Assembly (NCBI GenBank): GCA_963696395.1
Contig: CAVOJZ010000002.1
Location: 559,317-623,316, forward strand
Direction: 5' to 3'
DNA length: 64,000 bases
Source of the DNA: an uncultured bacterium
Lineage (GTDB): Bacteria > Patescibacteriota > Minisyncoccia > UBA6257 > 2-01-FULL-56-20
A program made the translations under genes and the position numbers. How positions within the stretch are numbered: the stretch's first letter is position 1; each line of letters begins with the position of its first letter. The notes below the pieces were generated by a model. The model searched no databases, was not told the origin of the DNA, and saw only the letters and a program-made list of their open reading frames with translations. This document shows positions 378 to 54,367 of this stretch, one piece after another.

Positions 378-449
378 GCCCTCGTCGTTCAACGGATAGG
401 ACGCAAGATTGCGGATCTTGTAATCGAGGTTCGATTCCTCGCGGGGGCA
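378..449 (+). tRNA. tRNA-Arg, anticodon read as GCG, no encoded CCA
   Basis: Cloverleaf folded by hand: acceptor gccctcg/cgggggc, D-stem gttc/ggac, anticodon stem caaga/tcttg with loop ttGCGga, T-arm cgagg-ttcgatt-cctcg, 72 nt. Confidence 0.65.
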
Positions 450-455
450 CAGACA

Positions 456-558
456 GCAAAAGAATTCTTTGTGAGGGTACGCGTCGCGGTCTGCTGACCG
501 CGCGCTCCATCTCGCCGCCTTCGCGGCTCCGATAGCCCCTCACAAAGAATTCTCTTGC
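456..558. repeat. Family A hairpin element copy A1: 22-bp outer stem enclosing conserved core
   Basis: gcaaaagaattctttgtgaggg pairs with ccctcacaaagaattctcttgc; core ...gcgcggtc-tgct-gaccgcgc...ctcgccgccttcgcggctccgatagc shared with copies at 38040, 39328, 39596. Confidence 0.7.
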
Positions 559-586
559 TGTAGGTGTGGTTTGCTACTATATAGAT

Positions 587-24074: not shown

Positions 24075-26057
24075 CTAATTGTTGTCTTCGATGTCGAGCG
24101 CGTTCGTTCGATCACCGAAATAGATCGTTTTGCCATTCGGAGAAACTCCTCGCCCGAGTGGCAACTTGGTTGAGCTCACGTTGAGCGTCGTTTTTGTTCC
24201 GGTCGTCGTGAGGACATCAACTCCCGTGGGGACCGCTTGCGCGGAAGAGGCAAACGTGATTTCAAACGTGTTCGCCGCCTCATTCGCAATGACCCCGTTC
24301 GGGAAGCCGTCCAGCGATACCGGTTGGCCGATGAGTTGCATCGAGCCAATATTGAAGAGGAATGCCTGTTTGCCGAGCGGGTCCAACAAGACGCCAACTC
24401 CGGAGCTCAATAACTTTATCTGAGCGAGCGTGCTTCCGGATCCGGACTGGGTAAGCCCGGGAACGCTCAGTGGTTTTCCTAACGATGTTAAGTCAGGAAT
24501 GCTGAGGCCCTGCAGCGTGTTCGTGCCGCAATTTAGGATGACGGCGTAGAGCGCGCTTCCGCTCTGGACCGCGTCAAGCGAGCACGGATCATTGAGGCTC
24601 GTGTAGGAGAAGTAATTATCGAATAGCGGATCGGTTAGAATGTTTGCGCCGACCAGCGTATTGACCGTCGGTTGGAGAGCCATGAAATAGCCCCCAGCCG
24701 CGGCAATCTCCCACCCGCTTTGTCCGTTCATATTGCCACCGCCAACACCGTTTCCGTTTAGGTCGGTGACAGAAATGCCTTCCTGCCCCCGTTCCACAAA
24801 GCCCAGATCGCCCGACGTTTGATCAAGCGCCATGACCTTTGCGATTCCCTTGCCGGCGCCGGCTTGCCAACTCGACAGAAGATTTCCGCTGGCATCAAAG
24901 TGATAAGCAATTCGTCCGCCCTGAGGTCCGTAGACAACAAGGAGGATCACGTCACCATTCTTCCCGTAAACCGCCATGGTGTTTTGATTGCCCATCATGG
25001 CGCCTGTGTAAGGATCGGAAATTGTTTGCTGGCTCTGTGTGCACGCTTGGAAAACGAACGTGCCAGGGTTGTATGTGTTTTGGTCAAAGTCCATCCCCCC
25101 GAATATTTCGGTTGGACTTTCGTATTCCCAGCCCATCAACGCCGGAAGTGGCGTGACAGACACGTTGTTCGTGCACCCCGAACTGAAGTTTGTCCCATTC
25201 AGGGTCGGGTTTATTGAGCCCTCGCAATAATAATCGTCGTTGCATCCAAAGATGAGCGGCGAAATAGACGTGATGGTTGATTGCTGGGACGCCGCCGTCA
25301 CGGTGATCTGAACCGACTTGGTTCCGCTGTTGCCTCCGGAGCCAGTGCATGGCCCAAGAGTATACGTTGCGGTGCCAACGGTCTGCGGTGTCACAGTTGT
25401 CCCGCTTGAGTTTGCCGCGACAGATCCGGACCAATCCGTTTCTGCCGGACTCGCCGAAGCTGTGCACGGATCGCTACCGCTCGTGTTTTGTGTGCCCCAC
25501 GAAAGCTGTAACGATGTTCCCACAACGACGGTTGATACCGACGCTGCGAACGACGTGATGCTTGCGGGTTGCGGGGCCGCCGTCACGGTGATCTGAACCG
25601 ACTTGGTTCCGCTGTTGCCTCCGGAGCCAGTGCATGGCCCAAGAGTATACGTTGCGGTGCCAACGGTCTGCGGTGTCACAGTTGTCCCGCTTGAGTTTGC
25701 CGCGACAGATCCGGACCAATCCGTTTCTGCCGGACTCGCCGAAGCTGTGCACGGATCGCTACCGCTCGTGTTTTGTGTGCCCCACGAAAGCTGTAACGAT
25801 GTTCCCACAACGACGGTTGATACCGACGCTGCGAACGACGTGATGCTTGCGGGTTGCGGGGCGACATCGCCTCCTCCATTACCACCTCCGCAGGAACTGA
25901 GAATCAACGAGGCTCCCAAAATTCCCGCCACCAGAAGAACAAAAAACGACTTGTTTTTGCTCATATCCTCTCTCCTATTTCGTAAATTGTGAATCGTGGC
26001 AGGATTTTGAACCAGCCAACTGGCTACACTATACTGCTTATCCCGCTGTTTTGTCAA
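24075..26057 (-). CDS. large secreted protein with tandemly duplicated Ig-like domain
   Basis: Signal peptide; 95-aa module APQPASITSFAAS...SVQITVTA present twice identically. Confidence 0.75.
   Translation of the reverse strand: MTKQRDKQYSVASWLVQNPATIHNLRNRREDMSKNKSFFVLLVAGILGASLILSSCGGGNGGGDVAPQPASITSFAASVSTVVVGTSLQLSWGTQNTSGSDPCTASASPAETDWSGSVAANSSGTTVTPQTVGTATYTLGPCTGSGGNSGTKSVQITVTAAPQPASITSFAASVSTVVVGTSLQLSWGTQNTSGSDPCTASASPAETDWSGSVAANSSGTTVTPQTVGTATYTLGPCTGSGGNSGTKSVQITVTAASQQSTITSISPLIFGCNDDYYCEGSINPTLNGTNFSSGCTNNVSVTPLPALMGWEYESPTEIFGGMDFDQNTYNPGTFVFQACTQSQQTISDPYTGAMMGNQNTMAVYGKNGDVILLVVYGPQGGRIAYHFDASGNLLSSWQAGAGKGIAKVMALDQTSGDLGFVERGQEGISVTDLNGNGVGGGNMNGQSGWEIAAAGGYFMALQPTVNTLVGANILTDPLFDNYFSYTSLNDPCSLDAVQSGSALYAVILNCGTNTLQGLSIPDLTSLGKPLSVPGLTQSGSGSTLAQIKLLSSGVGVLLDPLGKQAFLFNIGSMQLIGQPVSLDGFPNGVIANEAANTFEITFASSAQAVPTGVDVLTTTGTKTTLNVSSTKLPLGRGVSPNGKTIYFGDRTNALDIEDNN
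25291..25860. repeat. perfect 285-bp tandem duplication (2 copies) inside CDS 24075..26057
   Basis: Six-frame track shows pairs of ORFs offset by exactly 285 nt with identical translations; nucleotide lines 25291-25575 and 25576-25860 identical. Confidence 0.85.
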
Positions 26058-35879: not shown

Positions 35880-37277
35880 CTATAGCCCACGGACGGCCAA
35901 GGCGAACTGGTCGCCTCGATCGTATTCGTTCTTGAAAATGCCGAAGCTGGTCGCGCCCGGGGAGAGGAGAATGATGTCGCCTGGTTGTGCGGCTGCGAGC
36001 GCCGCCGCGAACGCATCTTTCATATTCAAGACGATCGTTGCGTTATAATCGGGCGGCAGAACCTTCAATAATTTATCGGTTGCTTTGCCCTTAAAGAGGA
36101 TGAGGTGTTTTACGGTTTTCGGGATGTAGTCGGCGAGCGCTTCGAAGGGGAGTTCTTTGTCGCTGCCGCCGGCGATGAGAGCGATCGGTTTATTTTGAGG
36201 GACGAGCGCCGCTAACGCCGCGATGGTTGCTTCGGGCGTTGTTGAATTCGAATCGTTATAGAAGGCGATGCCTTTTTTCTCTCCCAGATATTCCAAGCGC
36301 CCGGGAAGACCATTAAATTTTTCTAAAACAGTTTTTGCTATTTCATCCGGGATTCCAAGCGCCCGCGCTACGGCAACTGCATAGGCTGCGTTGGTGCGAT
36401 TATGTTTGCCGACGAGCGCAATGTTCCAGGTTTTGGGTATTGTTGCATCGGTTATGCATGTTCCTTTGAGACTGCCGAACTGAGCCTCGACACTCTTTTT
36501 TATTTCTGATGTTGTGATAAATATGTCGCCCTTTTTCTGAAAGCGGGCGATGGCTGCTTTGTCACGAAAGTAACGTTCCATATCTCCCTTGTAGTAGTTC
36601 ATGTGGTCGGGCATAAAGTTCGTCCAGACCGCAATGTGCGGGCTTATTGACGCTTCTTCGAATCCCTGGAGCTGCCACGAGTCGAGTTCTAGGATCACGA
36701 GGTCTCCCGGCGCAACGCCTCGAAGGAGATTGAGCGTTGCAACGTCGCGTTCATTTCCGCCAAGACCCGGGTTTTTTCCGGCGGCTTTCGCAATTTCATA
36801 AATAAGATGCGTTGTGGTTGATTTGCCACGCGTGCCCGTAATTCCCACCACCGTCGCTCCGGAAAGTTTTGCAAAAAGCGAGGCGTCCATCGCAACCGGA
36901 ATGCCAAGTTCCCGTGCGTGAGCAAGGTAGGGCGAATCAAGCGGCGCATTCGGTGCGCGAATGATAAGGTCGCGCCCTTCAAAGTCCTCCATGGTGTGCC
37001 CTCCGAGATGATAGGTTATAGTTGGAAATCTTTCGAGCCTGGCGAGTGAGGGTGCGAGTTCATCTTTTGTTTTCAAATCGGTCACGATGAGCTCGGCTCC
37101 CGCTTCCGCAAAAAATTCCGCGTCGCCGACGCCTCGCCCGAGCAGGCCGAGCCCCATCAGCGTTATTTTTTTCCCTGCAAACTGTGCTTTTATGTCGGAC
37201 GATTCCATTGCTTTGATAATTGCACTAATTGCGAGCTTTGACAATTCATTAAAAAAATCGCTATAATTCTTTGACAT
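35880..37277 (-). CDS. murD: Mur ligase family protein, MurD-like
   Basis: ATP-binding P-loop GITGTRGKSTTT, Mur ligase middle/C-terminal pattern, 465 aa. Confidence 0.7.
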   Translation of the reverse strand: MSKNYSDFFNELSKLAISAIIKAMESSDIKAQFAGKKITLMGLGLLGRGVGDAEFFAEAGAELIVTDLKTKDELAPSLARLERFPTITYHLGGHTMEDFEGRDLIIRAPNAPLDSPYLAHARELGIPVAMDASLFAKLSGATVVGITGTRGKSTTTHLIYEIAKAAGKNPGLGGNERDVATLNLLRGVAPGDLVILELDSWQLQGFEEASISPHIAVWTNFMPDHMNYYKGDMERYFRDKAAIARFQKKGDIFITTSEIKKSVEAQFGSLKGTCITDATIPKTWNIALVGKHNRTNAAYAVAVARALGIPDEIAKTVLEKFNGLPGRLEYLGEKKGIAFYNDSNSTTPEATIAALAALVPQNKPIALIAGGSDKELPFEALADYIPKTVKHLILFKGKATDKLLKVLPPDYNATIVLNMKDAFAAALAAAQPGDIILLSPGATSFGIFKNEYDRGDQFALAVRGL

Positions 37278-37283
37278 TCATCG

Positions 37284-37406
37284 CGGGAGGGTTGGGAAAG
37301 GTTTTCCGGGGAGCCCCATAAGCTCCCGAAGCAGGTCCGAGTCCTGCCCCCGCAACACGCAAGGTTTGAGTATCGAGTAAGACCGGGAGGCTTTTGTCGC
37401 ACACCC
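37284..37406. repeat. Family B-related element, short variant X
   Basis: Shares gtccgag(t)cctgcccccgcaacacgcaagg...agcaagacc...ttttgtcgcacaccc with 38260-38349 and the first part with 39571-39595. Confidence 0.6.
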
Positions 37407-37455
37407 GAGAGGTTTCGCTTTGGTAGCATCGATTTGAATAAGCTAAGATTAAAGG

Positions 37456-37830
37456 ATGCAACATCCTCAAAAGCCTACGAAAGACGAGCAAATTCTCTCG
37501 CTCATTTCGCATCAAGCGCGAGAGCTGGTTGAAAAATACACTTCACCCGAACAGTTGAACGTAGGTTCTTATAAAGAAATATTCAACGTTTCGAAAAGTG
37601 ACATTGCAATGTATCTTAAAAAGCATTTTGCGCTAACGGATTTAGTCCCAAGCCCTGAATCTAAGAAAGATGGTTTCTATGCAATCTCCATCGAAGGAGG
37701 GTTCCGTATCTATGAGCAATATGACGGCATTCGCGCGAATGAGAAAACGACATCGAATTCCGATGGTGTTTGGGATGCATTTGCAGAATACATTATTAGA
37801 ACGAGTGGAACCGGACTGTCCTTTAAGTAG
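37456..37830 (+). CDS. hypothetical protein
   Basis: 124-aa ORF inside repeat island; no motif. Confidence 0.4.
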   Translation: MQHPQKPTKDEQILSLISHQARELVEKYTSPEQLNVGSYKEIFNVSKSDIAMYLKKHFALTDLVPSPESKKDGFYAISIEGGFRIYEQYDGIRANEKTTSNSDGVWDAFAEYIIRTSGTGLSFK

Positions 37831-38013
37831 AATCTATCAATACGATATTCCGGTCTCAAAAGCAGCTTTTCAAAAACATCGCAACGGCTTGCCCAAAAGA
37901 GGTTCGCCCTTTGGAACGAAGTAAAGGCAAGTTTCAGGAAAACAAACTGACCGAGACGCCTCAAGTGAGACAGGGAGAGGATTTTCGAGAAGACCTTGTA
38001 AGGGCCTCTTAAT

Positions 38014-38349
38014 AAAAGTCCCAGACCGAGTGCGGCAACAGCTTTCGTTTTTCTCTCTGGGAGGGTCGCGTCGTTTTCTGCTGAAAACGCGCTACCTCTC
38101 GCCGCCTTCGCGGTTCCGAGATACCCTCTCGGAGAGAAAAACGAAAGCTACTGGACAAGACTCGGACGGGGAGGGGGTCGGGGAACCGGGAGGTTCCCCG
38201 CGTAGGAAGGCGCTGGAAACCGAGAGGTTTCCAGGGAGCGAAGCGCGTTGCGCGCGGAGCGACGTCCGAGCTTCCTGCCCCCGCAACACGCAAGGCCAAG
38301 TTCAGAGCAAGACCAAGTAGGCCTCAAGGCATGATTTTGTCGCACACCC
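38014..38349. repeat. Composite repeat copy Y: 5' arm + inserted A2 + family B structured element + tail
   Basis: aaaagtcccagaccgagtgcggcaaca / A2 / gactcggacggggagggggtcggggaaccgggaggttcccc...ggaaaccgagaggtttcc...gtccgagcttcctgcccccgcaacacgcaagg; near-identical to 39298-39595. Confidence 0.7.
38040..38150. repeat. Family A hairpin element copy A2
   Basis: Outer stem gctttcgtttttctctctgggaggg / ccctctcggagagaaaaacgaaagc; core tcgcgtcgttttctgctgaaaacgcgctacctctcgccgccttcgcggttccgagatac. Confidence 0.7.
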
Positions 38350-38699
38350 AGGACTAGATGATCTTGCTATCACATGCAAAGAGGACATGAAAGACAAAGT
38401 GTTGGCTGTCATCAAGCAGTATTCCCCGATTTATATTCCCCAGGTTCAGCCGATCCATAAGTCGTGGCTGTAGCACTTTCGTTTATCTCTGACCTTCGAA
38501 TGCATCCAATGATCAAGCGCAACCGCAATTCAGAAAAGAGGATACAACAGACGGAAGAAGTTATAGTTCGTATAGATGAAGGAGGAAATGCCTATTGCAT
38601 AGAACTAATCTTTGATCACAGGGGATTGATGTCAAAATTAAAAGCCATGGAAACTACAGATACTACTTTGGAAGAAGCGCAAGGATAGAACTCACCCCC

Positions 38700-39224
38700 A
38701 TGCACGCAAAAATGATTTTTATTATTGTAATTATCGCCATTGTCATTGCCCTCATCGCCGGATTCTTGTGGTATCGAAGTGGGATTCACCAGGCGGAAGA
38801 CGACTTTTTGTATGCTAACAAATCCTCTGGAACGCTTAAGTCGTCTTTCAATTGCAGCACCATCCCCGAGATAACTTTCGAGTATCCTCTTTTCAAAGGC
38901 CTTGATAAACCATACCTTATCTATTCGGATAATGAGTGTTTGATAACGTTGAATCGAATTCCGAATGACAGGCCTAATGGAGCAGTCATAACTGTCACGA
39001 AACTGCCAACGGAAGCAACGCCAAGTCCAACGTCACAGCTGATCCCAAAAAATAATTACGGCGTTCAATATCAAGAACTATCTGGCGTTGATGGCTATCT
39101 TTTTTACACCAGCTTGCAAGGATATTATTATCGGGTTGCATTTTCGAATTATTCCAATGTCTCAATTGACCATGATTTGTTTTGGAATACTATTCTTGAT
39201 AGTTTTCGGGAGGTAAAATCGTGA
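38700..39224 (+). CDS. hypothetical membrane-anchored/secreted protein
   Basis: N-terminal TM MIFIIVIIAIVIALIAGFLWY, 174 aa, between the two composite repeat copies. Confidence 0.5.
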   Translation: MHAKMIFIIVIIAIVIALIAGFLWYRSGIHQAEDDFLYANKSSGTLKSSFNCSTIPEITFEYPLFKGLDKPYLIYSDNECLITLNRIPNDRPNGAVITVTKLPTEATPSPTSQLIPKNNYGVQYQELSGVDGYLFYTSLQGYYYRVAFSNYSNVSIDHDLFWNTILDSFREVKS

Positions 39225-39297
39225 TTCGTATCAAGACCGAGACGCTTCGAAAGTAAGCGGAAGGGGATCCCCAAGAATGCTTGTGGGGTTTGCACCC

Positions 39298-39595
39298 AAA
39301 AAGTCCAAGACCGAGTGCGGCAACACTGGCAGTAAGCAGTCCAAAAGAATTTTGAGTACGCGTCCGCGCGTACTCGCGCGGCGCTCCATCTCGGCCGCCT
39401 TCGCGGCCTCCGATAGCCCCAAAATTCTTTTGGACTGCTTACTGCCCAATTGTTATGAGATCGCAAGACTCGGACGGGGAGGGGGTCGGGGAACCGGGAG
39501 GTTCCCCGCGTAGGAAGGCGCTGGAAACCGAGAGGTTTCCAGAGAGCGAAGCGCGTTGCGCGCTGAGCGACGTCCGAGCTTCCTGCCCCCGCAAC
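39298..39595. repeat. Composite repeat copy Z: 5' arm + inserted A3 + family B element (tail truncated by A4)
   Basis: Same order as copy Y; B sequence 39467-39595 differs from 38159-38287 at only a few positions. Confidence 0.7.
39328..39446. repeat. Family A hairpin element copy A3 (26-bp perfect outer stem)
   Basis: ggcagtaagcagtccaaaagaatttt ... aaaattcttttggactgcttactgcc; core tacgcgtccgcgcgtactcgcgcggcgctccatctcggccgccttcgcggcctccgatagc. Confidence 0.75.
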
Positions 39596-39700
39596 CACTT
39601 TTGCTTTTTCTCTTTCTGAGGGTCGCGTCGTTTTCTGCTGAAAACGCGCTACCTCTCGCCGCCTTCGCGGCTCCGAGATACCCTCAGAAAGAGCAAAAGC
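39596..39700. repeat. Family A hairpin element copy A4
   Basis: Outer stem cttttgctttttctctttctgaggg / ccctcagaaagagcaaaagc; core nearly identical to A2. Confidence 0.7.
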
Positions 39701-39789
39701 CTCCGATCAATCGCAGTGTTTCTTGCCCTTTTGATAAGCGGCTTTTAGTTGAAAATACGGACAGGGTGCGATATATTGTGAATGCAATT

Positions 39790-39862
39790 GCCGACGTAGC
39801 TCAGGGGTTAGAGCGGGCGTTTCATAAGCGCTAGGTCGGAGGTTCGACTCCTCCCGTCGGCA
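39790..39862 (+). tRNA. tRNA-Met (CAU; elongator or Ile-lysidine type), no encoded CCA
   Basis: Acceptor gccgacg/cgtcggc (G1-C72, so not initiator), anticodon loop ttCATaa, T-arm ggagg-ttcgact-cctcc. Confidence 0.75.
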
Positions 39863-39887
39863 CATCCGGTAATGCTATAATCATGGA

Positions 39888-40418
39888 ATGACCATCGGCC
39901 TTTATACATCGCGGCATTATTTCGACCTTAAAATCGGGGCAATAAAAGAGGCGACCAAAAAGCTTTCCATAGACGCGGATATTGTACTCGGCGATTCGTT
40001 TCGTCCGTCGCTTGTCTCGCAGACGTTCGGTTTCGAGGATATGTTCAAACGGGCGCAGGAATGTGCGGATGAAGCGCTGAAGCGACAGAATACCGACATT
40101 GGCATCGGAATCGAAAACTCAATCAGTTTTTTCAACAATGCGAACGAGTGGTATTACGTGATCGGGATTTCCATCAAAACAAAGGACGGCAAGCATGCAG
40201 ATAGTTTCACTTCCGGGATACGGGTGCCGGGTTGGATGATGGAGCAAATCCAAAAAGACAACCTCAAGATGGATTCGTTAACCCAGAGCCTCGCAAAAGA
40301 AGACGATCCCGTGATGTATTTTTCCGGAGGAACCATCACGCGAAAAGACCTTATGGTACCGGCGCTGCTTTTGGCATTTGCTAACCTGAATCTGGACAAG
40401 CGGCCGACGTCGGCTTAG
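39888..40418 (+). CDS. YjjX-like inosine/xanthosine triphosphatase (non-canonical NTPase)
   Basis: Resembles YjjX/DUF84: DIGIGIENSI...and C-terminal VMYFSGGTITRKDLMVPALLLAF. Confidence 0.5.
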   Translation: MTIGLYTSRHYFDLKIGAIKEATKKLSIDADIVLGDSFRPSLVSQTFGFEDMFKRAQECADEALKRQNTDIGIGIENSISFFNNANEWYYVIGISIKTKDGKHADSFTSGIRVPGWMMEQIQKDNLKMDSLTQSLAKEDDPVMYFSGGTITRKDLMVPALLLAFANLNLDKRPTSA

Positions 40419-43685: not shown

Positions 43686-45164
43686 TTGGGTTATAGTTAT
43701 TACATAATGCCAACATTTTCCGTGCCCGAGGAGGTTGCTGAAATTGCCGCCACGCTTGCGAAGGCTGGCTTTGAAGCGTATCTCGTCGGAGGTTGCGTGC
43801 GCGATATGCTTATCGGGCGCGAGCCGAAAGACTGGGATATTGCAACGAGCGCCAATCCGGCACAAGTCCAGAAAATTTTCCCAGAGAATGTTTATGAAAA
43901 TGATTTCGGTACGGTTGGCGTAAAAACCGAATCGGAAGATCCGAAATTGAAAGTGATCGAGGTCACAACGTACCGCATAGAGGGAAAATACACCGACAAG
44001 CGCCATCCGGACGACATAAAGTTTGCAAAGACGATAGAAGAGGATTTGTCCCGCAGGGATTTCACGGTCAACGCGATTGCGATGGGGCTTGGCGGTGATG
44101 TTGTGGATCCTTTTGAAGGGCAGAAAGATCTTAAGAAAAAAATAATCAGAACGGTTGGAACGGCCGATGATCGCTTTCACGAGGACGCCCTTCGCCTGAT
44201 GCGCGCCGTCCGATTTGCCGTTGAACTGGATTTTGATATCGAGCTTGTCACGCGCCGCTCGATTGAAAAATATTCCCGCGAGCTTGAAGTGATCGCAAAG
44301 GAACGGATCCGGGATGAGCTCGTAAAGATCATCATGACACCGCGCGCGGCAAAGGGGATTATCCTTCTTGAAGAACTCGGACTGCTCAAAAATATCCTGC
44401 CGGAACTTCAGGAGGGCGTCGGCGTCGGACAGAATCTGCATCACATTTATACGGTGTTCGAACACAATGTCCGCGCACTTGACTACTCCGCCCGGGAGGA
44501 TTATTCGCTTGCGGTTCGCATGGCGTCGCTTTTGCACGACATCGGCAAGCCGCGCGCAAAAGCGGGTGACGGAGCGCACTCAACGTTTTACAGCCATGAA
44601 TATATCGGCGCAAAGCTTGCCGCTAAAGCGCTCGACCGGTTGCGGTTTCCCCGTGAGTTCATCGAAGACGTTGTCCATCTCGTTAAAAACCATATGTTCT
44701 ATTACAACGTGGGGGATGTCTCCGCGCATGGCGTCCGGCGGTTTCTCGCCCGTGTCGGTCCCGAGACGGTGCCGGATCTATTGAAAGTCCGCGAGGCCGA
44801 TCGCATCGGCTCGGGAGTCAAAAAAGCCGTGCCCTACAAGCTTCGCCACTTGCTTTTCATGATCGAGAAAGTGAAGAACGATCCCATCTCGCCCAAAATG
44901 CTGAAGGTTAACGGCGATGACGTTATGAACGTTCTGAAGCTTCCCGAAGGCATGCGGGTGGGTTGGATCATTATCTCTCTATTAGAGGAGGTGCTTGAAG
45001 ACCCCGAAAAAAATACGAGGGAATATCTTGAGAAGAGGATGAGGGAGTTGGATGAGTTAAGCGATAAAGCATTAAAAAAAATGGCGGACAAAGCCCGCGA
45101 AACGAAAGATGAATTTGCCGACGAGGCTGAAGCGGATATCAAGAAAAAATTTCACGTTTCATAA
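43686..45164 (+). CDS. cca: CCA-adding tRNA nucleotidyltransferase (class II, with HD domain)
   Basis: GGCVRDMLIGREPKDWDIATSA polymerase beta head, RRDFTVNA, HD motif LLHDIGKP. Confidence 0.8.
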   Translation: MGYSYYIMPTFSVPEEVAEIAATLAKAGFEAYLVGGCVRDMLIGREPKDWDIATSANPAQVQKIFPENVYENDFGTVGVKTESEDPKLKVIEVTTYRIEGKYTDKRHPDDIKFAKTIEEDLSRRDFTVNAIAMGLGGDVVDPFEGQKDLKKKIIRTVGTADDRFHEDALRLMRAVRFAVELDFDIELVTRRSIEKYSRELEVIAKERIRDELVKIIMTPRAAKGIILLEELGLLKNILPELQEGVGVGQNLHHIYTVFEHNVRALDYSAREDYSLAVRMASLLHDIGKPRAKAGDGAHSTFYSHEYIGAKLAAKALDRLRFPREFIEDVVHLVKNHMFYYNVGDVSAHGVRRFLARVGPETVPDLLKVREADRIGSGVKKAVPYKLRHLLFMIEKVKNDPISPKMLKVNGDDVMNVLKLPEGMRVGWIIISLLEEVLEDPEKNTREYLEKRMRELDELSDKALKKMADKARETKDEFADEAEADIKKKFHVS

Positions 45165-48508: not shown

Positions 48509-49559
48509 AAGTTGAGGAGGAGATGCGCAAGCAAGCTTGCGTATCTCCGACGAAACGAGGGATGAAAAGCTTCTTAGCTTTACAGCCCGAAGTTACCAAG
48601 GTATTTAAACCTTTTTTGGGGAAAAACTCAACTGCCCGGGAAGCTATTGACACTATTTTTCAGGTGAGTATACTTACTCCTAAGATACGAATGTTCAAGA
48701 ACGTAAATCTTTCACCAACCACCGGCTAGCCCCGCAATTTTAGATTGTGAAGCAGCCGCCGTGCGCGGCTGATTTTATTCTTGGGTATGTCGTGTCGAAC
48801 GTTTTTTACCAATATTCGTTCGACTACTTGAGCGAACTTCCGAATTGTAGAGTCGGAAGATTCATATGAAGCTCCGCGCCATCTTATGTCCGACTGTGCC
48901 TACAAGCACGGGCGGGCAGAGGCCTACGTAACGCATTTCTAGGCCTCCAATTTCTCTTGGCAGGCGGAGCATGTTCTTAAATAGAACAAAAAAGTCAGCA
49001 TTGGGATGGTTGGCACATAAGGGCGAATGGTGGATGCCTAGACTAGAAAAGGCGATGAAGGACGTGGCGTAGCAACGATATGCCTCGGGGAGGTGCGTAG
49101 CAACCTGTGATCCGGGGATTTCCGAATGGGGAAACCTAGTTGAGTAAACCTCAATTGCGTGGAGCAATCCACGAGCGTACCCGGCGAAGTAAAACATTTC
49201 AGTAGCCGGAGGAAAAAAGAACAAGCAGTTTATTCCCTGAGTATCGGCGAGAGAAAAGGGAAGAGCCCAGACTAAGGTTGTGATTTATCACAGCCTTGGA
49301 GTTATAAGTGTTGAACGCTCTCCTTCGCGAATAATAAAGGGCGCAGTAATGTGCTCTCTATTATTTGCGAGCGGAGGTGGAGGAGTTAAAAAATCATTGG
49401 TTAGCCGAAATCAGCTGGAAAGCTGATACCAGAGAGGGTGATAGTCCCCTAGGCGAAAACTTTTGGTCTCCTTAGTTTATCTACTTGAGTACTTCGAAGT
49501 AAAACAGTTTCGAAGGAATTAGCCAGTACTATCTGGCAAGGCTAAATACTTTTCTAGAT

Positions 49560-49596
<37 letters not shown>

Positions 49597-51020
49597 CAGG
49601 CCGGTGAGGCCGTTGAAATAGAACCTGAAACCATTTGTCTACAAGGAATTGAAGCACGAACGGCTGGGGAGCAATCCTCGGACGAGTGCGACAATGTGCC
49701 TATTGAAGAATGATCCAACGACTTATTTTTGTGTCGCTTGTCTAAACGCGCATAGCGTGTAGGCGCAGCGAAAGCGAGTCTTAATAGGGCGAAATTAAGG
49801 CGGCACAGTATAGACCCGAAGCGTGATGAGCTTACCTTGGCCAGGGTGAACTCTCGAGAAATCGAGAGGGAGGCCCGAACCGGTTGATTGTTCAAAATCT
49901 TCGGATGAGCTGAGGTAAGGAGTGAAAAGCTAATCGAATTACGTAATAGCTGGTTCTCTCCGAAATAGTTTTAGGACTAGCGGCGAATGTTCCCCGTGGG
50001 GGTAGAGCACTGGATGATCTGTAATGGTCGAAAGACCGCCAGATCAATCAAACTCCGAATACCGCGGGTTAAAAGTTCGCTAGTTAGACTGTGGGGGCTA
50101 AGCTCCATGGTCGCGAGGGGAAGAGCCCAGATCGTCATCTAAGGTCCCGAAGTCCATGCTCAGTGTGAAAGGTAGTCATCACCCATAGACAGATAGGAGG
50201 TTGGCTTAGAGGTAGCCATCCTTTAAAGAGTGTGTAACAACTCACTATTCGACGGGTGGTGGCGCCGAAAATGTACCGGGGCTCAAGCATGGCACCGAAG
50301 ATACGAATTTACATGTCCCTCGGGACGTGTATCTGGTAGGAGAGCATTCCGGCCTGCAGTGAAGGTCAACCCGCGAGGGTGACTGGAGCGGCCGGAAGAG
50401 AAAATGTTGGAATGAGTAACCACAATCCCAATGAGAAATTGGAACCCCGAAAATCTGAGGTTTCCGTGGCACTGGCAATCAACCACGGGTTAGGCGGTCC
50501 TAAGGCAATCCCGAAAGGGGCAGTCGATGGAAAGCTGGTTAATATTCCAGCCCTCCTATGTGTTTATCCTGCGCGTGCAAGGGAAATAATCATGTATGTC
50601 TTATTGGTTTGGTATCGCTGCGGACAAGTTCAAGCGGTCCGCGGCGGAAGGTGAGGAATTTACCTCATCGACACATGAGAAGAGCCCTTCGAGAAAAGCG
50701 CGTTTGTTATGACACGTGGGATCCGTACCGTAAACCGACACTGGTGGATAGGGCGAGTAGCCCAAGGGGAACGAGTGATTTGCCTCTAAGGAACTAGGCA
50801 AAAAAGCGGCCGTAAGTTCGCAATAAGGCCTGCCCTCCGCAAGGAGGGCCGCAGCTAAAGTATCTCTGGCGACTGTTTACCAAAAACACAGCTCCCTGCT
50901 AACTCGCAAGAGGATGTATAGGGGGTGACGCCTGACCGATGCGAGAAGGTCAAGGTTGGGGGTGGCGTAGCAATACGTTGCTCACTGACTCAAGCCCTCG
51001 TCAATGTCAGCGATAACTAT

Positions 51021-51766
51021 GAAATACGATTGTAGTTATAAAATTTGGCTATATGCTGGAATACCTGAGTATCCGACATTACCGTTGGTGCAAAAATAAA
51101 TTAAAAAATCATTAAAACTGATTTTGGAATTTACTTTTTGTTTGCTACGGTGAAAATATGATCGGTGCAGACAATCAGCAGGAAAGGCTTTGGTCGCAAA
51201 AATGGCTTAACGATATTCCAGAAAATATCGGTTGGTATCTTTCGGGCTTCGTAGACGGAGAAGGGAGCTTTAACGCTTCGCTTCGGAAGGGAAATGGGCA
51301 TCGCCTCGGATGGCAGGTGCAGTTAACTTTTAATGTAGCCCAGCGAGATATTACTGATTTGGAATTATTGAAGCGTCATTTTGCATGTGGACGATTACAA
51401 AATCGAAAGGACGGAGTTCGTTATTTCGTCGTTTGTGATTATCGTTCCATTATCAATCGGGTTATACCATTCTTTGAGAAATTTCCTTTCTATTCTGTTT
51501 CAAAACAGAAAAACTTCTTTCTTTTCAAACAAATCGCACTTCTGATGGGCCAGGGCAAACACCTTGATCCAGAAGGATTCCGCGAGATTGTTTCTATAAG
51601 AGAAAGATTAAACGAAGGGAAAGGACGAAGAAGAAAATATAACGAGAGCGATATGATTAAAGAATCCTCAGAGACTACACGCCAAACTTCGCGTATCGCG
51701 AAGATGATATAGTCCGAACTGCATGGCGACATGCAGAGTTGCTCTCTCACGAGCAGAATAACAGAT
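51021..51766 (+). mobile_element. group I intron 1a in 23S at the E. coli 1917-equivalent site, carrying a LAGLIDADG ORF
   Basis: 5' exon ends ...gataactaT; P7 R element cagagactacacg (about 51678) and S aagatgatatagtcc (about 51703); ends in G before exon aatcgttctaaggt. Confidence 0.6.
51158..51712 (+). CDS. single-motif LAGLIDADG homing endonuclease (intron-encoded)
   Basis: YLSGFVDGEGSF dodecapeptide near N-terminus, 184 aa, inside 23S intron. Confidence 0.75.
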   Translation: MIGADNQQERLWSQKWLNDIPENIGWYLSGFVDGEGSFNASLRKGNGHRLGWQVQLTFNVAQRDITDLELLKRHFACGRLQNRKDGVRYFVVCDYRSIINRVIPFFEKFPFYSVSKQKNFFLFKQIALLMGQGKHLDPEGFREIVSIRERLNEGKGRRRKYNESDMIKESSETTRQTSRIAKMI

Positions 51767-51780
51767 GAATCGTTCTAAGG

Positions 51781-52018
51781 TGGAATTGAAACTGCCTTAG
51801 TAAAACCTAACTATATGCTGGAACACCCGCGCATATCAGAGTACCGCAAGGTAACAATCTCTGATCGAAGCGGACAATCAGCAGGAAACTTCTTCGGAAG
51901 GATCCTCAGAGACTACACGTTAGGATCGCCGGGTGGCGATAAGATATAGTCCGAACTGCATAGCGATATGCAGAGCCAAGCAGAAATGTTTTGGCCAACA
52001 TAGGTTGTAACATGTTTG
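51781..52018 (+). mobile_element. group I intron 1b (ORF-less, ~238 nt) in 23S at the E. coli 1931-equivalent site
   Basis: Q caatcagcagg (about 51872), R cagagactacacg (about 51908), S aagatatagtcc (about 51938); joined exons give aactat-aatcgttctaaggt-agcgcaattcc, matching E. coli aactataacggtcctaaggtagcgaaattcc. Confidence 0.55.
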
Positions 52019-52716
52019 AGCGCAATTCCTTTTCGGGTAAGTTCCGAAGCGCACGAAAGGCGTAACGACCGGAGAACTGTCTCAGAGGCAAGCTCGGTGA
52101 AAATGCGATTCCCGTGAAGACGCGGGATACCTGCAGCGGGACGAAAAGACCCCGGAAGCTTTACTGCAGCTTGGTATTGATTTTAGAGTTCTACTACGTA
52201 GCGTAGTGGTGAGGATTTGAAGCACAGCTCTCGGGTTGTGTGGATCCGACAATGAAACAGCCATTTTTAGAACTTTAACGTCTAACCGGTTGGGGACCTT
52301 ACAAGGAAACCCAACTGAGACAGTGCTTGGTAGGCAGTTTAAATGGGGCGTTTTCCTCCAAAAGAGTAACGGAGGAGTTTATTAAGGTCAGCTTAGCCCG
52401 GATGGAAATCGGGCAGGACGTGCAAACGCAAAAGCTGGCTTGACTGCGAGACCTACAAGTCGAGCAGGTGCGAAAGCAGAAGTTAGTGACCCGACGGCTA
52501 TGTTCATGTAATTTATTATATGAATTCTTAATAGGAAGGCCGGAGACACCGGATAAAAGCTACTCCGGGGATAACAGGCTAGTATTGTCCGAGCGTCCCT
52601 AGCGACGACAATGCTCGGCACCTCGATGTCGGCTCGCCACAGCGCGGGGGTGGAGAAGCTCCCAAGCGTTTGGCTGTTCGCCAATTAAAGTGGCACGTGA
52701 GCTGGGTTCAGACCGT

Positions 52717-53425
52717 TGAATACAAGAACCCTTAACGACGAATCGAACACGGCGGCTATCTCGAGTAATCGAGATTGAAAAAATCGACTCATATCGGTGA
52801 AACCCTAGCGTTCATGACCTGTGAGCGTATCTAAATGTTTATTAAAAATAAATTAAAAACTATTTTGTATGAACAGGCGATCATAGGATAATACCGAGGG
52901 AAGTCGCATATGGAATTTTCGTCAACGCAAAAAGCATATCTTGCAGGTTTTCTTGATGGTGATGGCAGCATCTATGTACGATTGAAACCAAATAGCGATT
53001 ATCGTTATGGGTTTCAGGTCGCACCGTGTGTTGCATTTTTTCAATCATCAAAAGACCGCAAGAGCTTTGAAGAGATCTGCAATCTCATTGGTAACGGATA
53101 TCTGCGGGAAAGAAACGATGGCATGTTGGAGTATGTTATGCAGAAACAACAGGCGATCTACTCTTTTCTTTTGGACATACGGCCATTTCTTATTCTTAAG
53201 AAACGGCAAGCCGATTTGATGCTCGTGATTTTGGAAAAGAAAATGCTCGTAAAATCTAAAGAAGATTTTATAGCGTTGATGGAGTTAATCGATCAATTCC
53301 GAGAATTAAATTATTCGAAGAAACGAAAGATTCATATGTTGACCCTCTAGAGACTACACGTCGATCTCCTCGAAAGAGGATGGTGGTATAGTCCGGCACT
53401 CCTGGTAACAGGAGAATACAGTATG
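52717..53425 (+). mobile_element. group I intron 2 in 23S at the E. coli 2593-equivalent site (I-CreI site), carrying an I-CreI-like ORF
   Basis: Exon junction ttcagaccgT | ... G | cgtgagacaggtcgg reconstitutes ...accgtcgtgagacag (E. coli gaacgtcgtgagacag); P7 R/S elements agagactacacg / tatagtcc at about 53350/53390. Confidence 0.7.
52910..53350 (+). CDS. I-CreI-family LAGLIDADG homing endonuclease (intron-encoded)
   Basis: YLAGFLDGDGSIY motif; overall similarity to I-CreI (FLxxxxPFLxLKxxQAxLxLxIxE; DQxxxLNxSKxRK) at the homologous rDNA site. Confidence 0.8.
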   Translation: MEFSSTQKAYLAGFLDGDGSIYVRLKPNSDYRYGFQVAPCVAFFQSSKDRKSFEEICNLIGNGYLRERNDGMLEYVMQKQQAIYSFLLDIRPFLILKKRQADLMLVILEKKMLVKSKEDFIALMELIDQFRELNYSKKRKIHMLTL

Positions 53426-53947: not shown

Positions 53948-54136
53948 ACCCCAAGATTAGGTATGCGTGGTTTCGTCGAAGACTACGACGTTGATAGGCG
54001 TTAGGTGTAAGGCCAGCAATGGTTTAAGCCAAGACGTACTAATAACCCCGCCAACCATCCCAATGCTGACTTTCACGCGACCTCGTGCCGCGTGTGCATG
54101 AATTTATTTCTACATCAAAAAGCTAAACGGCTTTTT

Positions 54137-54257
54137 GATGTCGGTGTTTTATCCTTGTGTGTCCCACCTCTTCCCATTCCGAACAGAGAAGTGAAAGCAC
54201 AAGCATCCGATGATACTCATCGCTTCGGCTTTGGGGAAAGTAGGATATGCCGACATC
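54137..54257 (+). rRNA. rrf: 5S rRNA
   Basis: gtcccacctcttcccattccgaacagagaagtgaaag matches the 5S loop B/C consensus; ends gatgtcgg/ccgacatc pair; an extended flanking helix 54125-54268 is followed by a T-run. Confidence 0.8.
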
Positions 54258-54367
54258 AAAGTGCCGTTTTTTTATTGCCCATCCCGCGTCCCGCGCATTC
54301 GCGCGCGTTGATTTTTTTATAGGCCTGCGGTAGAGTCCGGATAGTGCCAAGTGCACGAGGAGGATAG

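Follow-up and report, generated by a model that had tools for sequence, protein, structure and literature searches.

A 64 kb stretch of DNA from an uncultured member of the Patescibacteria (the window in the following, meaning the whole stretch) carries four long hairpins, A1–A4. They belong to an old, Patescibacteria-wide family of hairpin elements, 110–190 nt long, that lie at the 3′ ends of genes, most of them in the sense orientation. The explanation that we favor, with a probability of roughly 0.55, is that A is a 3′-end or intercistronic hairpin module with a conserved tip on a locus-specific stem, that the GCAAC(A) string preceding the window copies is tRNA-derived, and that A4 is a native trailer. 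An earlier note on this DNA had described A as a small site-specific hairpin inserting 3′ of GCAACA, with A4 inserted into the tail of copy Z of a second repeat, B, which is present as copies X, Y and Z. Homologous loci or contigs are referred to by L-numbers.

The four A hairpins of the window

A1–A4 fill the top four ranks among the longest local inverted repeats of the window. Each carries its three-way junction on a long outer stem of 21–27 bp and has a fold z-score between −9 and −12, and the covariance model described below matched exactly these four elements in the window, at 75–85 bits. The hairpins and the tRNA gene in front of A1 are:

378..450, + strand: tRNA-Arg (GCG), called by ARAGORN and Rfam; CCA is not encoded, and A1 begins 2–3 nt past the discriminator base
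453..561, + strand: A1, hairpin tipped by a three-way junction; fold −65.9 kcal/mol, z −10.6; covariance model 84.8 bits
38040..38149, + strand: A2, 27-bp stem with a three-way-junction tip (fold, covariance model); core 98% identical to that of A4
39328..39446, + strand: A3, 27-bp perfect stem with a tip of the A1-like subfamily (fold, covariance model)
39597..39703 (paired 39603–39700), + strand: A4, of the A2-like subfamily; directly 3′ of the tRNA-like end of B-Z

The inverted repeat of A1 spans 448–566, taking in the last three bases of tRNA-Arg. An identical copy of A1 is held by L245. Exact-protein look-ups yielded no usable comparison: that for an NTPase led to a Logan contig from the same strain, which ends inside A4, and MurD had no record. 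The left junction of A1, right behind the tRNA-Arg gene, reads ...GGGGGC-A-CA|GACAGC; those of the other three copies are GTGCGGCAACA|GCTTTCG for A2 (start 38040), GTGCGGCAACACT|GGCAGT for A3 (start 39328) and CCCCGCAAC|CACTTTTGC for A4 (start 39596/39597). In these sequence facts the earlier note was exact: the A hairpins number four, a GCAAC(A)-like string precedes each of them, and all of the junction strings that it quoted agree with the DNA. It had also set A2 and A3 at one position of their composite repeats, and indeed the left 27 nt are 96% and the right 132 nt 98% identical, while the two elements belong to different subfamilies; the site-specific element that the note saw in this arrangement was not borne out.

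A gene for a CCA-adding enzyme (PolyA_pol head plus HD) lies at 43686–45164 of the window, and none of the tRNA genes of the window encodes CCA. tRNA 3′ ends must therefore be cut exactly where A1 and A4 begin.

Distribution and structure of the A family

A first genome scan with a loose tip pattern gave 119 hits, which were mostly chance matches in G+C-rich genomes; the true members were at 12 Patescibacteria loci, L061 included. A covariance model built from 14 A copies scored homologues at 65–92 bits. When a stricter pattern was run over metagenome contigs, 120 loci were obtained, in which the model then matched 116 elements. True homologues were recovered only from metagenome-assembled genomes (MAGs) or contigs of Patescibacteria, namely Paceibacterota, Parcubacteria, Minisyncoccia, Saccharibacteria and unclassified members. 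No Rfam 15 model matched A at gathering thresholds across the whole window, or at E ≤ 10 within 37100–39900, the region holding A2–A4, and no description of the family was found in the literature that was searched.

A is a structured element kept by compensatory double changes, either as RNA or as single-stranded DNA (ssDNA). In an alignment of 108 distinct sequences, 96% of cells were paired and 16 of the 18 core pairs showed changes on both sides; all ten pairs of the proximal stem, P1, had double changes. The observed covariation score was reached by none of 500 shuffles, and pairing fell to ~40% in a control in which the partner was shifted by one column.

The tip is an apical three-way junction, and the proximal stem pairs a U-tract with an A-tract. 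P2 is a freely covarying helix of 7–10 bp with a UGCU-type loop, P3 reads GCCGC-CUUC-GCGGC, lengthened by CUC/GA(G), and the conserved junction bases are YUCUCG and UCCGA. From 5′ to 3′, the consensus is U-tract, GGG, (UAC), GCG-U-C, P2 (7 bp), GCGC, YUCUCG, P3, UCCGA..., CCC(UC), A-tract. The apparent invariance of P3 arose because the search pattern required it; P3 itself covaries, as in a divergent copy in L143 that has GGCACC/GUGCC. The junction and P3 sequences are kept across classes, from Saccharibacteria to Paceibacteria. Among the 66 unique, complete elements, the outer stem had a median of 29 pairs (range 4–58) and the whole element a median length of 125 nt. The outer stem is locus-specific and almost perfectly Watson–Crick, varying among copies and at orthologous sites; what is conserved is the tip with ~10 bp of proximal stem.

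One subfamily (L154, L223, L212, L170, L166, L221 and L190) has an extra outer helix beyond an internal loop, with conserved UGUCAAA(U/C) upstream and UUGGCA downstream. The tail sequences of the window, described below, hold a similar string, TTTTGTCGCACACCC. Readings of the tip as RNase P RNA, signal recognition particle (SRP) RNA, a 5S-like RNA, a hammerhead, a twister, a K-turn or a pseudoknot were dropped, the defining motifs being missing from the sequence. For a spacer-like idea, a 20-mer from the A3 stem, the one stem tried, was compared with viral contigs and gave no exact match.

Position at gene ends

A elements are found at the 3′ boundary of genes and mostly run in the sense direction; the stop codon, or the mature 3′ end of a tRNA, is located at the foot of the 5′ arm or within it. 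For 40 of the 66 copies there is a sense open reading frame (ORF) of at least 80 aa with its stop codon between −80 and +25 of the stem foot, and for ~20 long ORFs the stop codon lies 1–17 nt inside the 5′ arm. The upstream genes include those for EF-G (five loci), EF-Tu, DnaB, AtpA, AtpG, SecY, DnaN, RNase J, SecF, Map and GyrB. Downstream start codons were found within ~35 nt of the 3′ foot in several loci; with a stop in the foot of the 5′ arm and a start near the 3′ foot, A fills the intercistronic gap. At three loci, a canonical tRNA gene is directly followed by A on the same strand: in the window (Arg), in L189 (Tyr, with a gap of 0) and in L169 (Ile).

Between co-directional genes, 18 copies were sense and 5 antisense. 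Seven copies were flanked by convergent genes, and no copy was flanked by divergent ones. Where two copies on opposite strands were close together, the pair was convergent in 5 of 5 cases, giving one sense copy per gene.

Stems as inverted copies of the gene end

The distal 3′ arm of A is an inverted copy of the end of the upstream gene. In L143, the last codons of atpA and the stop codon (TTCTTGCAGAAATAA) are in the 5′ arm, and their reverse complement is in the 3′ arm. At the 3′ end of fusA in five related contigs, the ~36-bp stem begins at the last codon plus TAA, and a further outer helix, which reaches ~40 nt into the coding sequence, joins ~10 nt of that sequence, located ~25 nt before the stop codon, to a segment downstream of A. 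Substitutions between the fusA orthologues are mirrored in both arms of the stem. A comparison of L194 with its A-less orthologue L215 showed that the outer 12 nt of the 5′ arm were common to both and that the matching part of the 3′ arm was new; this part of the 5′ arm therefore pre-existed.

The core helices comprised 1804 Watson–Crick, 19 G·U and 19 A·C pairs, the outer stems 1082, 14 and 25, and the proximal P1 stem 713, 57 and 75, respectively. A G·U excess among the first 17 copies (24 vs. 9) vanished once 55 elements were counted more strictly. In RNA under ordinary selection, G·U pairs should be in clear excess. Because G·U and A·C counts are equal, we argue that pairing is kept at the DNA level. 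Template switching within quasi-palindromes is an established mutational mechanism, and we infer that it may both maintain and extend the complementarity of A at that level. The lack of a G·U excess makes the family a clean test case for maintenance of structure at the RNA level versus the DNA level.

Long perfect hairpins (20–37 bp) in the same contigs numbered 68 with the A tip and 37 without it. Since the latter are so common, long palindromes at gene ends are a general habit of these genomes. Hairpins without the A tip are found at L205 10937–11030, L227 6877–6969, L224 11864–11954, L170 5147–5233 and 5756–5834, L126 3583–3659, L138 12326–12403 and elsewhere, with stems of 20–37 bp and tips of 17–24 nt. 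Their tips include GTTGTG-N4-CACAGCA, ACCGCGCAGCGGAC..., GGGCTCACCCTTCGGGATT and TACTCGGAAGGG, and their U-rich/A-rich proximal stems are A-like.

Origin of the GCAAC(A) string

Insertion 3′ of GCAACA, as the earlier note proposed, was not supported by the larger set of elements. No base preference was found in the 12 nt outside either end of the 66 elements, and the flank logo was flat. GCAAC occurs near the left junction in only 4 of the 66 copies, three of them in the window and one in L204, and all four are at tRNA-like 3′ ends. The note itself had held that its model would fall if target-motif bias were lacking across many copies, and in these 66 it was lacking. Direct repeats flanking A were at the level expected from shuffled flanks, giving no sign of a target-site duplication. 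In the window, GCAACAC occurs 14 times against 6.7 expected, and the clearest two of these, with which B-X and B-Y end, have no A element behind them.

The earlier note had seen no transposase, recombinase or reverse transcriptase gene near the window copies, and we likewise found none among the 20 ORFs that were run through Pfam, out of ~56 window ORFs of at least 110 aa; neither a Y1/HUH transposase (TnpA) nor a tyrosine recombinase was among these 20. When the ORFs surrounding 16 copies, from the window and 11 loci, were compared by all-vs-all BLAST, no neighbor gene recurred, and no RAYT-like neighbor was seen.

GCAAC(A) is not a target; it consists of the 3′ strand of the acceptor, the discriminator and the one or two bases that follow, in B-X and in its partial copies. 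B-X resembles an initiator tRNA gene and has a promoter of its own:

37238..37267, + strand: sigma-70-type promoter of B-X (TTGACA, 18 nt spacer, TATAAT), 12/12 consensus match
37282..37357, + strand: B-X, 76-nt initiator-tRNA(fMet)-like gene with a C1×A72 mismatch, anticodon loop CCCAUAA (C33) and 3′ end CCCCCGCA-A-CA

B-X starts 15 nt downstream of the promoter, whose context is conserved in L121, L123 and L124. The B-X sequence is 100% identical in L121 and 97% in L123 and L124, where MurD is just 74–79% identical. The window MurD is 66–79% identical to its closest homologues among the matches listed, and those that have a source name come from Patescibacteria MAGs of Paceibacteria/Minisyncoccia-like type, the type to which the window itself is assigned. 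Counterparts of B-X are located at L121 1306–1381, L123 8924–8999, L124 48–123 and L204 1390–1465.

B-X was aligned with an E. coli gene that is annotated as tRNA-Met and has four copies per genome. The two share the 5′ CGCGGG, the CAUAA loop and the 3′ CCCCCGCAAC. B-X carries the initiator marks, that is, a CAU anticodon loop, the C1×A72 mismatch and an acceptor end ...CCCCCGCA-A. It departs from a canonical cloverleaf in its D and T loops (T loop UCCGAGU), and its anticodon stem closes with A–U, G–C and C–G, not with three G–C pairs. It escapes ARAGORN, and its top Rfam match within the tRNA clan reaches 29 bits, which is below threshold; the Rfam scans matched nothing else in B. B-X may be the real tRNAfMet of the lineage; locally, the analysis thus adds a non-canonical initiator-tRNA-like gene that is overlooked by standard finders. 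The tRNA-Arg gene in front of A1 ends in the same manner as B-X (...GGGGGC-A-CA). On the unrelated contig L204, a promoter is followed by a tRNAfMet-like gene ending in CCCCCGCAACA and, 7 nt later, by an A element.

Putative cassettes and the position of A4

Homology between the window, L121, L123 and L124 ends exactly after GCAAC, and L123 and L124, which have identical MurD, differ from the end of GCAAC onward. Genes for large serine recombinases (Resolvase, Recombinase and Zn-ribbon) abut the tRNAfMet-like gene near murD in L121 (3–1481) and L123 (7482–9023); as called, they overlap it in antisense. The point at which homology stops, together with the abutting recombinase genes, marks the 3′ end of the tRNA-like gene as a hot spot of integration in the lineage. 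A tRNA-like 3′ end that serves as a hot spot for serine recombinases would explain the repeat architecture described in the earlier note. The region downstream of B-X is made up of the following features:

37358..37455, + strand: tail-X, putative cassette 1 leader (ACGCAAGG...AAGACC...TTTTGTCGCACACCC), homologous to tail-Y by alignment
37456..37830, + strand: 124-aa ORF, putative cassette 1 cargo, without a Pfam family
38014..38040, + strand: L-end Y, AAAAGTCCCAGACCGAGTGCGGCAACA, 27 nt, ending in GCAACA; 96% identical to the block before A3
38156..38289, + strand: B-Y, structured, att-like junction of putative cassettes 1 and 2 (repeats, folds, BLAST)
38290..38388, + strand: tail-Y, putative cassette 2 leader, homologous to tail-X by alignment
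38700..39224, + strand: 174-aa ORF with an N-terminal hydrophobic segment, putative cassette 2 cargo, without a Pfam family
39299..39325, + strand: L-end Z, the same 27-nt block (repeat), ending in GCAACA, before A3
39464..39598, + strand: B-Z, a 98% copy of B-Y (repeat) ending in ...CCCCCGCAACCA; homology to X and Y stops at 39595
39790..39863, + strand: tRNA-Met (CAU, elongator-type acceptor), called by ARAGORN and Rfam, with its own promoter-like site at 39749–39777; end of the variable region

We interpret 37358–39595 as two tandem cassettes that would lack a recombinase. Each unit is made up of a tail or leader, small ORFs without a Pfam family, the 27-nt L-end, an A element and the 5′ arm of B, and the units are bounded by copies of the last ~23–32 nt of the tRNA-like gene. 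The last ~32 nt of B-Y copy the 3′ end of B-X, comprising part of the T arm and the acceptor 3′ strand, and the 5′ part of B-Y consists of two GNRA-capped hairpins. The L-ends are probably also partial copies of B-X, and the left end of each unit would include the tail of X and Y. The 124-aa ORF has a single other homologue, at 50% identity, in L247, a 1.7 kb AT-rich contig without A or B. The first 59 nt of L247 (1–59) are repeated at 1383–1441, which suggests a circular or tandem unit of ~1.38 kb; it is rich in hairpins. The string AAGACC(G/A)(A/G)G occurs five times on the + strand at 37379–39315, in tails X and Y and at both ends of the L modules, and is not enriched window-wide; a related string, AAGACTCGG, is found at the start of B-Y and B-Z.

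B-Z is 98% identical to B-Y over 132 nt, and the homology is lost right after ...CCCCCGCAAC at 39595; this stop, after cccgcaac, had been correctly located by the earlier note. X and Y go on as ACGCAAGG...TTTTGTCGCACACCC, and this missing tail was not found downstream of A4. B-Z was thus not simply interrupted, and the proposed insertion of A4 into the B tail loses its footing. A4 is most simply read as the trailer that the tRNA-like gene had originally and that now follows Z, the last of the att-like copies; this matches the arrangement of tRNA-like gene and A element in L204. A deletion between the GCAAC(A) microhomologies of the B end and the L end would have had the same outcome for B-Z and A4, and in neither case did A4 insert into B. 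The left flanks of A2 and A4 remain alike through GCAAC, which is what a joint duplication of flank and element would produce. The stretch from the B-X promoter to tRNA-Met contains no predicted + strand terminator, so that a single transcript, with tRNA-like and hairpin modules as its punctuation, is plausible.

Age and turnover

The median core identity of A elements was 66% within loci and 69% between genomes, and there were two recent pairs only, A2/A4 (98%) and the pair in L089 (93%). Because copies within a locus are as diverged as those from different genomes, A is unlike an active miniature transposon. The mobility that the earlier note ascribed to A is supported in a weaker sense than GCAACA-targeted insertion, namely that elements have been gained, lost and replaced. 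Between atpA and atpG, L143 has an A element where L193 has an 18-nt gap. L246 has an identical tRNA-Arg sequence with a 3′ flank that lacks A, and at the 3′ site of fusA different A subfamilies are found among genomes in which EF-G is 86–92% identical. The difference between A2 and A3 within near-identical flanks is a further case.

In the comparison with empty sites that the note had called for, relatives lack A at several sites, but no clean filled/empty junction was found at the tRNA-Arg, tRNAfMet-like, atpA|atpG or L194/L215 sites, the downstream sequence being rearranged in each. At the atpA|atpG site, the atpA-linked A element is separated from atpG by an extra ORF of 130 aa (L143 2206–2598, − strand; weak LPD3-domain match at 17.8 bits, below cutoff), so that the insertion into the operon was larger than the hairpin alone.

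Interpretation

In the favored explanation, A would be transcribed along with the upstream gene, as its 3′ trailer or as an intercistronic spacer. There it would act as a very stable hairpin that defines the transcript end, by protecting it from 3′ exonucleases and/or by offering a double-strand processing site, and with a downstream start codon at its foot, stop/start coupling may follow. The tip would be the recognition module for a putative conserved factor. The stem would be kept perfect, and lengthened, by palindrome correction at the DNA level through template switching, with the non-coding 3′ arm as the sole place where changes would be tolerated. A more far-reaching version, which we consider unlikely, makes A the cis module of an undescribed gene-end punctuation system common to Patescibacteria. 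The tip would recruit a dedicated factor, the stem would arise by fold-back copying, and A would act with tRNA-like modules to cut cassette or operon transcripts into units; the factor may be one for RNA 3′-end processing or termination, or a DNA hairpin-binding enzyme.

Several observations speak against a transcript-level module. The wobble signature of RNA under selection is missing, and the pair counts fit a DNA palindrome or cruciform. About 20% of the copies are antisense to their neighbors, including both copies in L089. These two points keep selfish and DNA-level readings alive. The hairpins are not standard intrinsic terminators: the right flank of the 66 copies shows no T enrichment, hence no U-tract, and a + strand scan of the window predicted no terminator at any A copy, while ordinary U-tract terminators occur elsewhere in the window. 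Patchy presence, even at orthologous sites, is no less compatible with a dispensable or selfish element than with a host function, and a recombinase gene for the cassettes was not found among the scanned window ORFs.

The patchiness and the replacement of these multi-copy elements at orthologous sites could also reflect a selfish, non-autonomous DNA palindrome, similar to a REPIN or an IS200/IS605 derivative and copied as folded ssDNA by an enzyme encoded elsewhere. We regard this as possible, if rather improbable. The tip might then, with the same reservation, be the recognition site of the enzyme, with stems that are local or grown by fold-back copying; such copying agrees with a 3′ arm that is an inverted copy of the upstream flank and with purely Watson–Crick pairing, in which G·U equals A·C. 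Other long perfect hairpin families with different tips in the same genomes, and the swap of A2 and A3 between near-identical flanks, point the same way. However, both a target motif and a target-site duplication are absent, and divergence within genomes equals that between genomes (66% vs. 69%, with the two recent pairs as the only exceptions). The junction and P3 are conserved across classes, copies are biased towards sense, and convergent pairs sit at convergent genes. Nor was there a transposase-like gene among the scanned ORFs by the window copies, or a recurring neighbor around the 16 copies. The earlier note's own alternative, that A is placed into pre-existing palindromes, may apply, long perfect hairpins with other small tips being common in the same genomes.

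As for insertion 3′ of GCAACA, with A4 in the B-Z tail, all four window copies do follow a GCAAC(A)-like string and B-Z homology does stop there, but 62 of the 66 junctions are without GCAAC, and where the string is present it forms the 3′ end of a tRNA-like gene. B-X and B-Y end in the full motif and have no A behind it, the displaced B tail is absent downstream of A4, the unrelated L204 has A directly behind its tRNA-like gene, and the A2/A4 flank similarity extends through GCAAC. We therefore consider this model highly improbable.

The abutment of some copies on the mature tRNA 3′ end, the strong promoters that drive units of tRNA-like gene plus A, and a conserved tip with features like those of protein-binding RNA would all suit a trans-acting small RNA, freed from tRNA or mRNA precursors (e.g., by an RNase Z cut at the tRNA 3′ end) and working in a Y RNA-like ribonucleoprotein. 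Most copies, however, come after protein genes whose stop codon is within the stem, and they lack a promoter of their own. The stems are locus-specific copies of the neighboring gene, there is no wobble signature, and each genome has many diverged copies, so that such an RNA seems quite unlikely. We give a similarly slim chance to A being a putative double-stranded DNA or cruciform site at heavily transcribed gene ends, acting as a topoisomerase or gyrase site or as a supercoil sink. A gyrase- or supercoil-type role has been proposed for some enterobacterial BIME/REP clusters. Symmetric, exclusively Watson–Crick pairing, the location behind genes for EF-G, EF-Tu, ATP synthase, SecY and tRNAs, and absence from divergent promoter regions would fit such a role, but a cruciform does not need an asymmetric conserved tip or a strand bias (18:5, and 5 of 5 convergent pairs).

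Other features of the window

The 23S rRNA gene of the window (49007–52792) is ~860 nt over model length and has several expansion insertions and ORF-sized stretches (e.g., 51158–51712). A group I intron was matched within it at 51750–51973, with 67.8 bits. The 5S rRNA gene (54139–54256) is framed by 20-nt inverted repeats at 54125–54144 and 54250–54269, likely a processing stem. A 285-nt tandem duplication at 25291–25861, in a secreted-protein-like ORF (− strand gene 24075–26057), gave chance matches to the A and B search patterns.

Comparison with known systems

Patescibacteria have tiny, compact genomes, in which elements of 110–190 nt that are kept behind core genes across classes are unlikely to be inert. 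Among known systems, A works most like gene-end palindromes of the REP/BIME type, although it fails the defining tests of REP/REPIN, MITEs (miniature inverted-repeat transposable elements), attC sites, IS200/IS605 derivatives and intrinsic terminators. REP/BIME and REPIN sequences, found in Proteobacteria and linked to RAYT transposases, are multi-copy intergenic palindromes like A. REP/BIME elements also share with A a location at 3′ ends, between co-directional or convergent genes and rarely between divergent ones, and as stable mRNA hairpins they can protect upstream cistrons, with possible additional roles at the DNA level. In REP/REPIN, however, the stem is conserved and copies within a genome are near-identical, whereas A has a tip conserved at the level of the phylum, locus-specific stems, a median identity within loci of 66% and no RAYT-like neighbor around the copies surveyed.

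ERIC, Correia (NEMIS), BOX and RUP elements are, like A, transcribed intergenic hairpin repeats of ~100–150 nt with a patchy distribution between strains. They differ in having conserved terminal inverted repeats and target duplications (TA for Correia); A has neither, and its copies within a genome are highly diverged. Members of the IS200/IS605 family and their hairpin derivatives are small hairpins recognized as ssDNA that make no target duplication, and their insertion next to a short motif was the analogy drawn in the earlier note. Their defining feature, a conserved 5′ target of 4–5 nt, is absent for A, no TnpA was seen in the scanned window ORFs, and A is a single long hairpin that encloses the whole element.

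The attC sites of integrons are imperfect palindromes of similar length, located just 3′ of sense ORFs and active as folded single strands, and the window has similar cassette-like units of ORF plus hairpin. Conservation is distributed in the opposite way, since attC has conserved outer R″/R′ boxes (RYYYAAC...GTTRRRY) and a variable middle; moreover, no intI was found here in the Pfam-scanned window ORFs, an attI is missing too, and most A elements lie behind core housekeeping genes. The arrangement around B resembles the genomic-island sites at tRNA genes: an intact tRNA-like gene is followed by tandem units that have partial direct copies of a tRNA 3′ end (B-Y and B-Z) at their borders, and relatives have recombinase-bearing islands at the same site. 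It differs in that the recombinases here are of the large serine type, which normally leave no long segments of identity, that no recombinase was seen in the units of the window, and that B-X falls short of the thresholds of ARAGORN and Rfam for a canonical tRNA. A further likeness is to the tRNA punctuation of polycistronic transcripts, as tRNA-like structures could direct RNase P and RNase Z cuts between units. In its layout, with a conserved tip and locus-specific stems that copy the end of the neighboring gene, A is the reverse of the known bacterial palindromic repeats.

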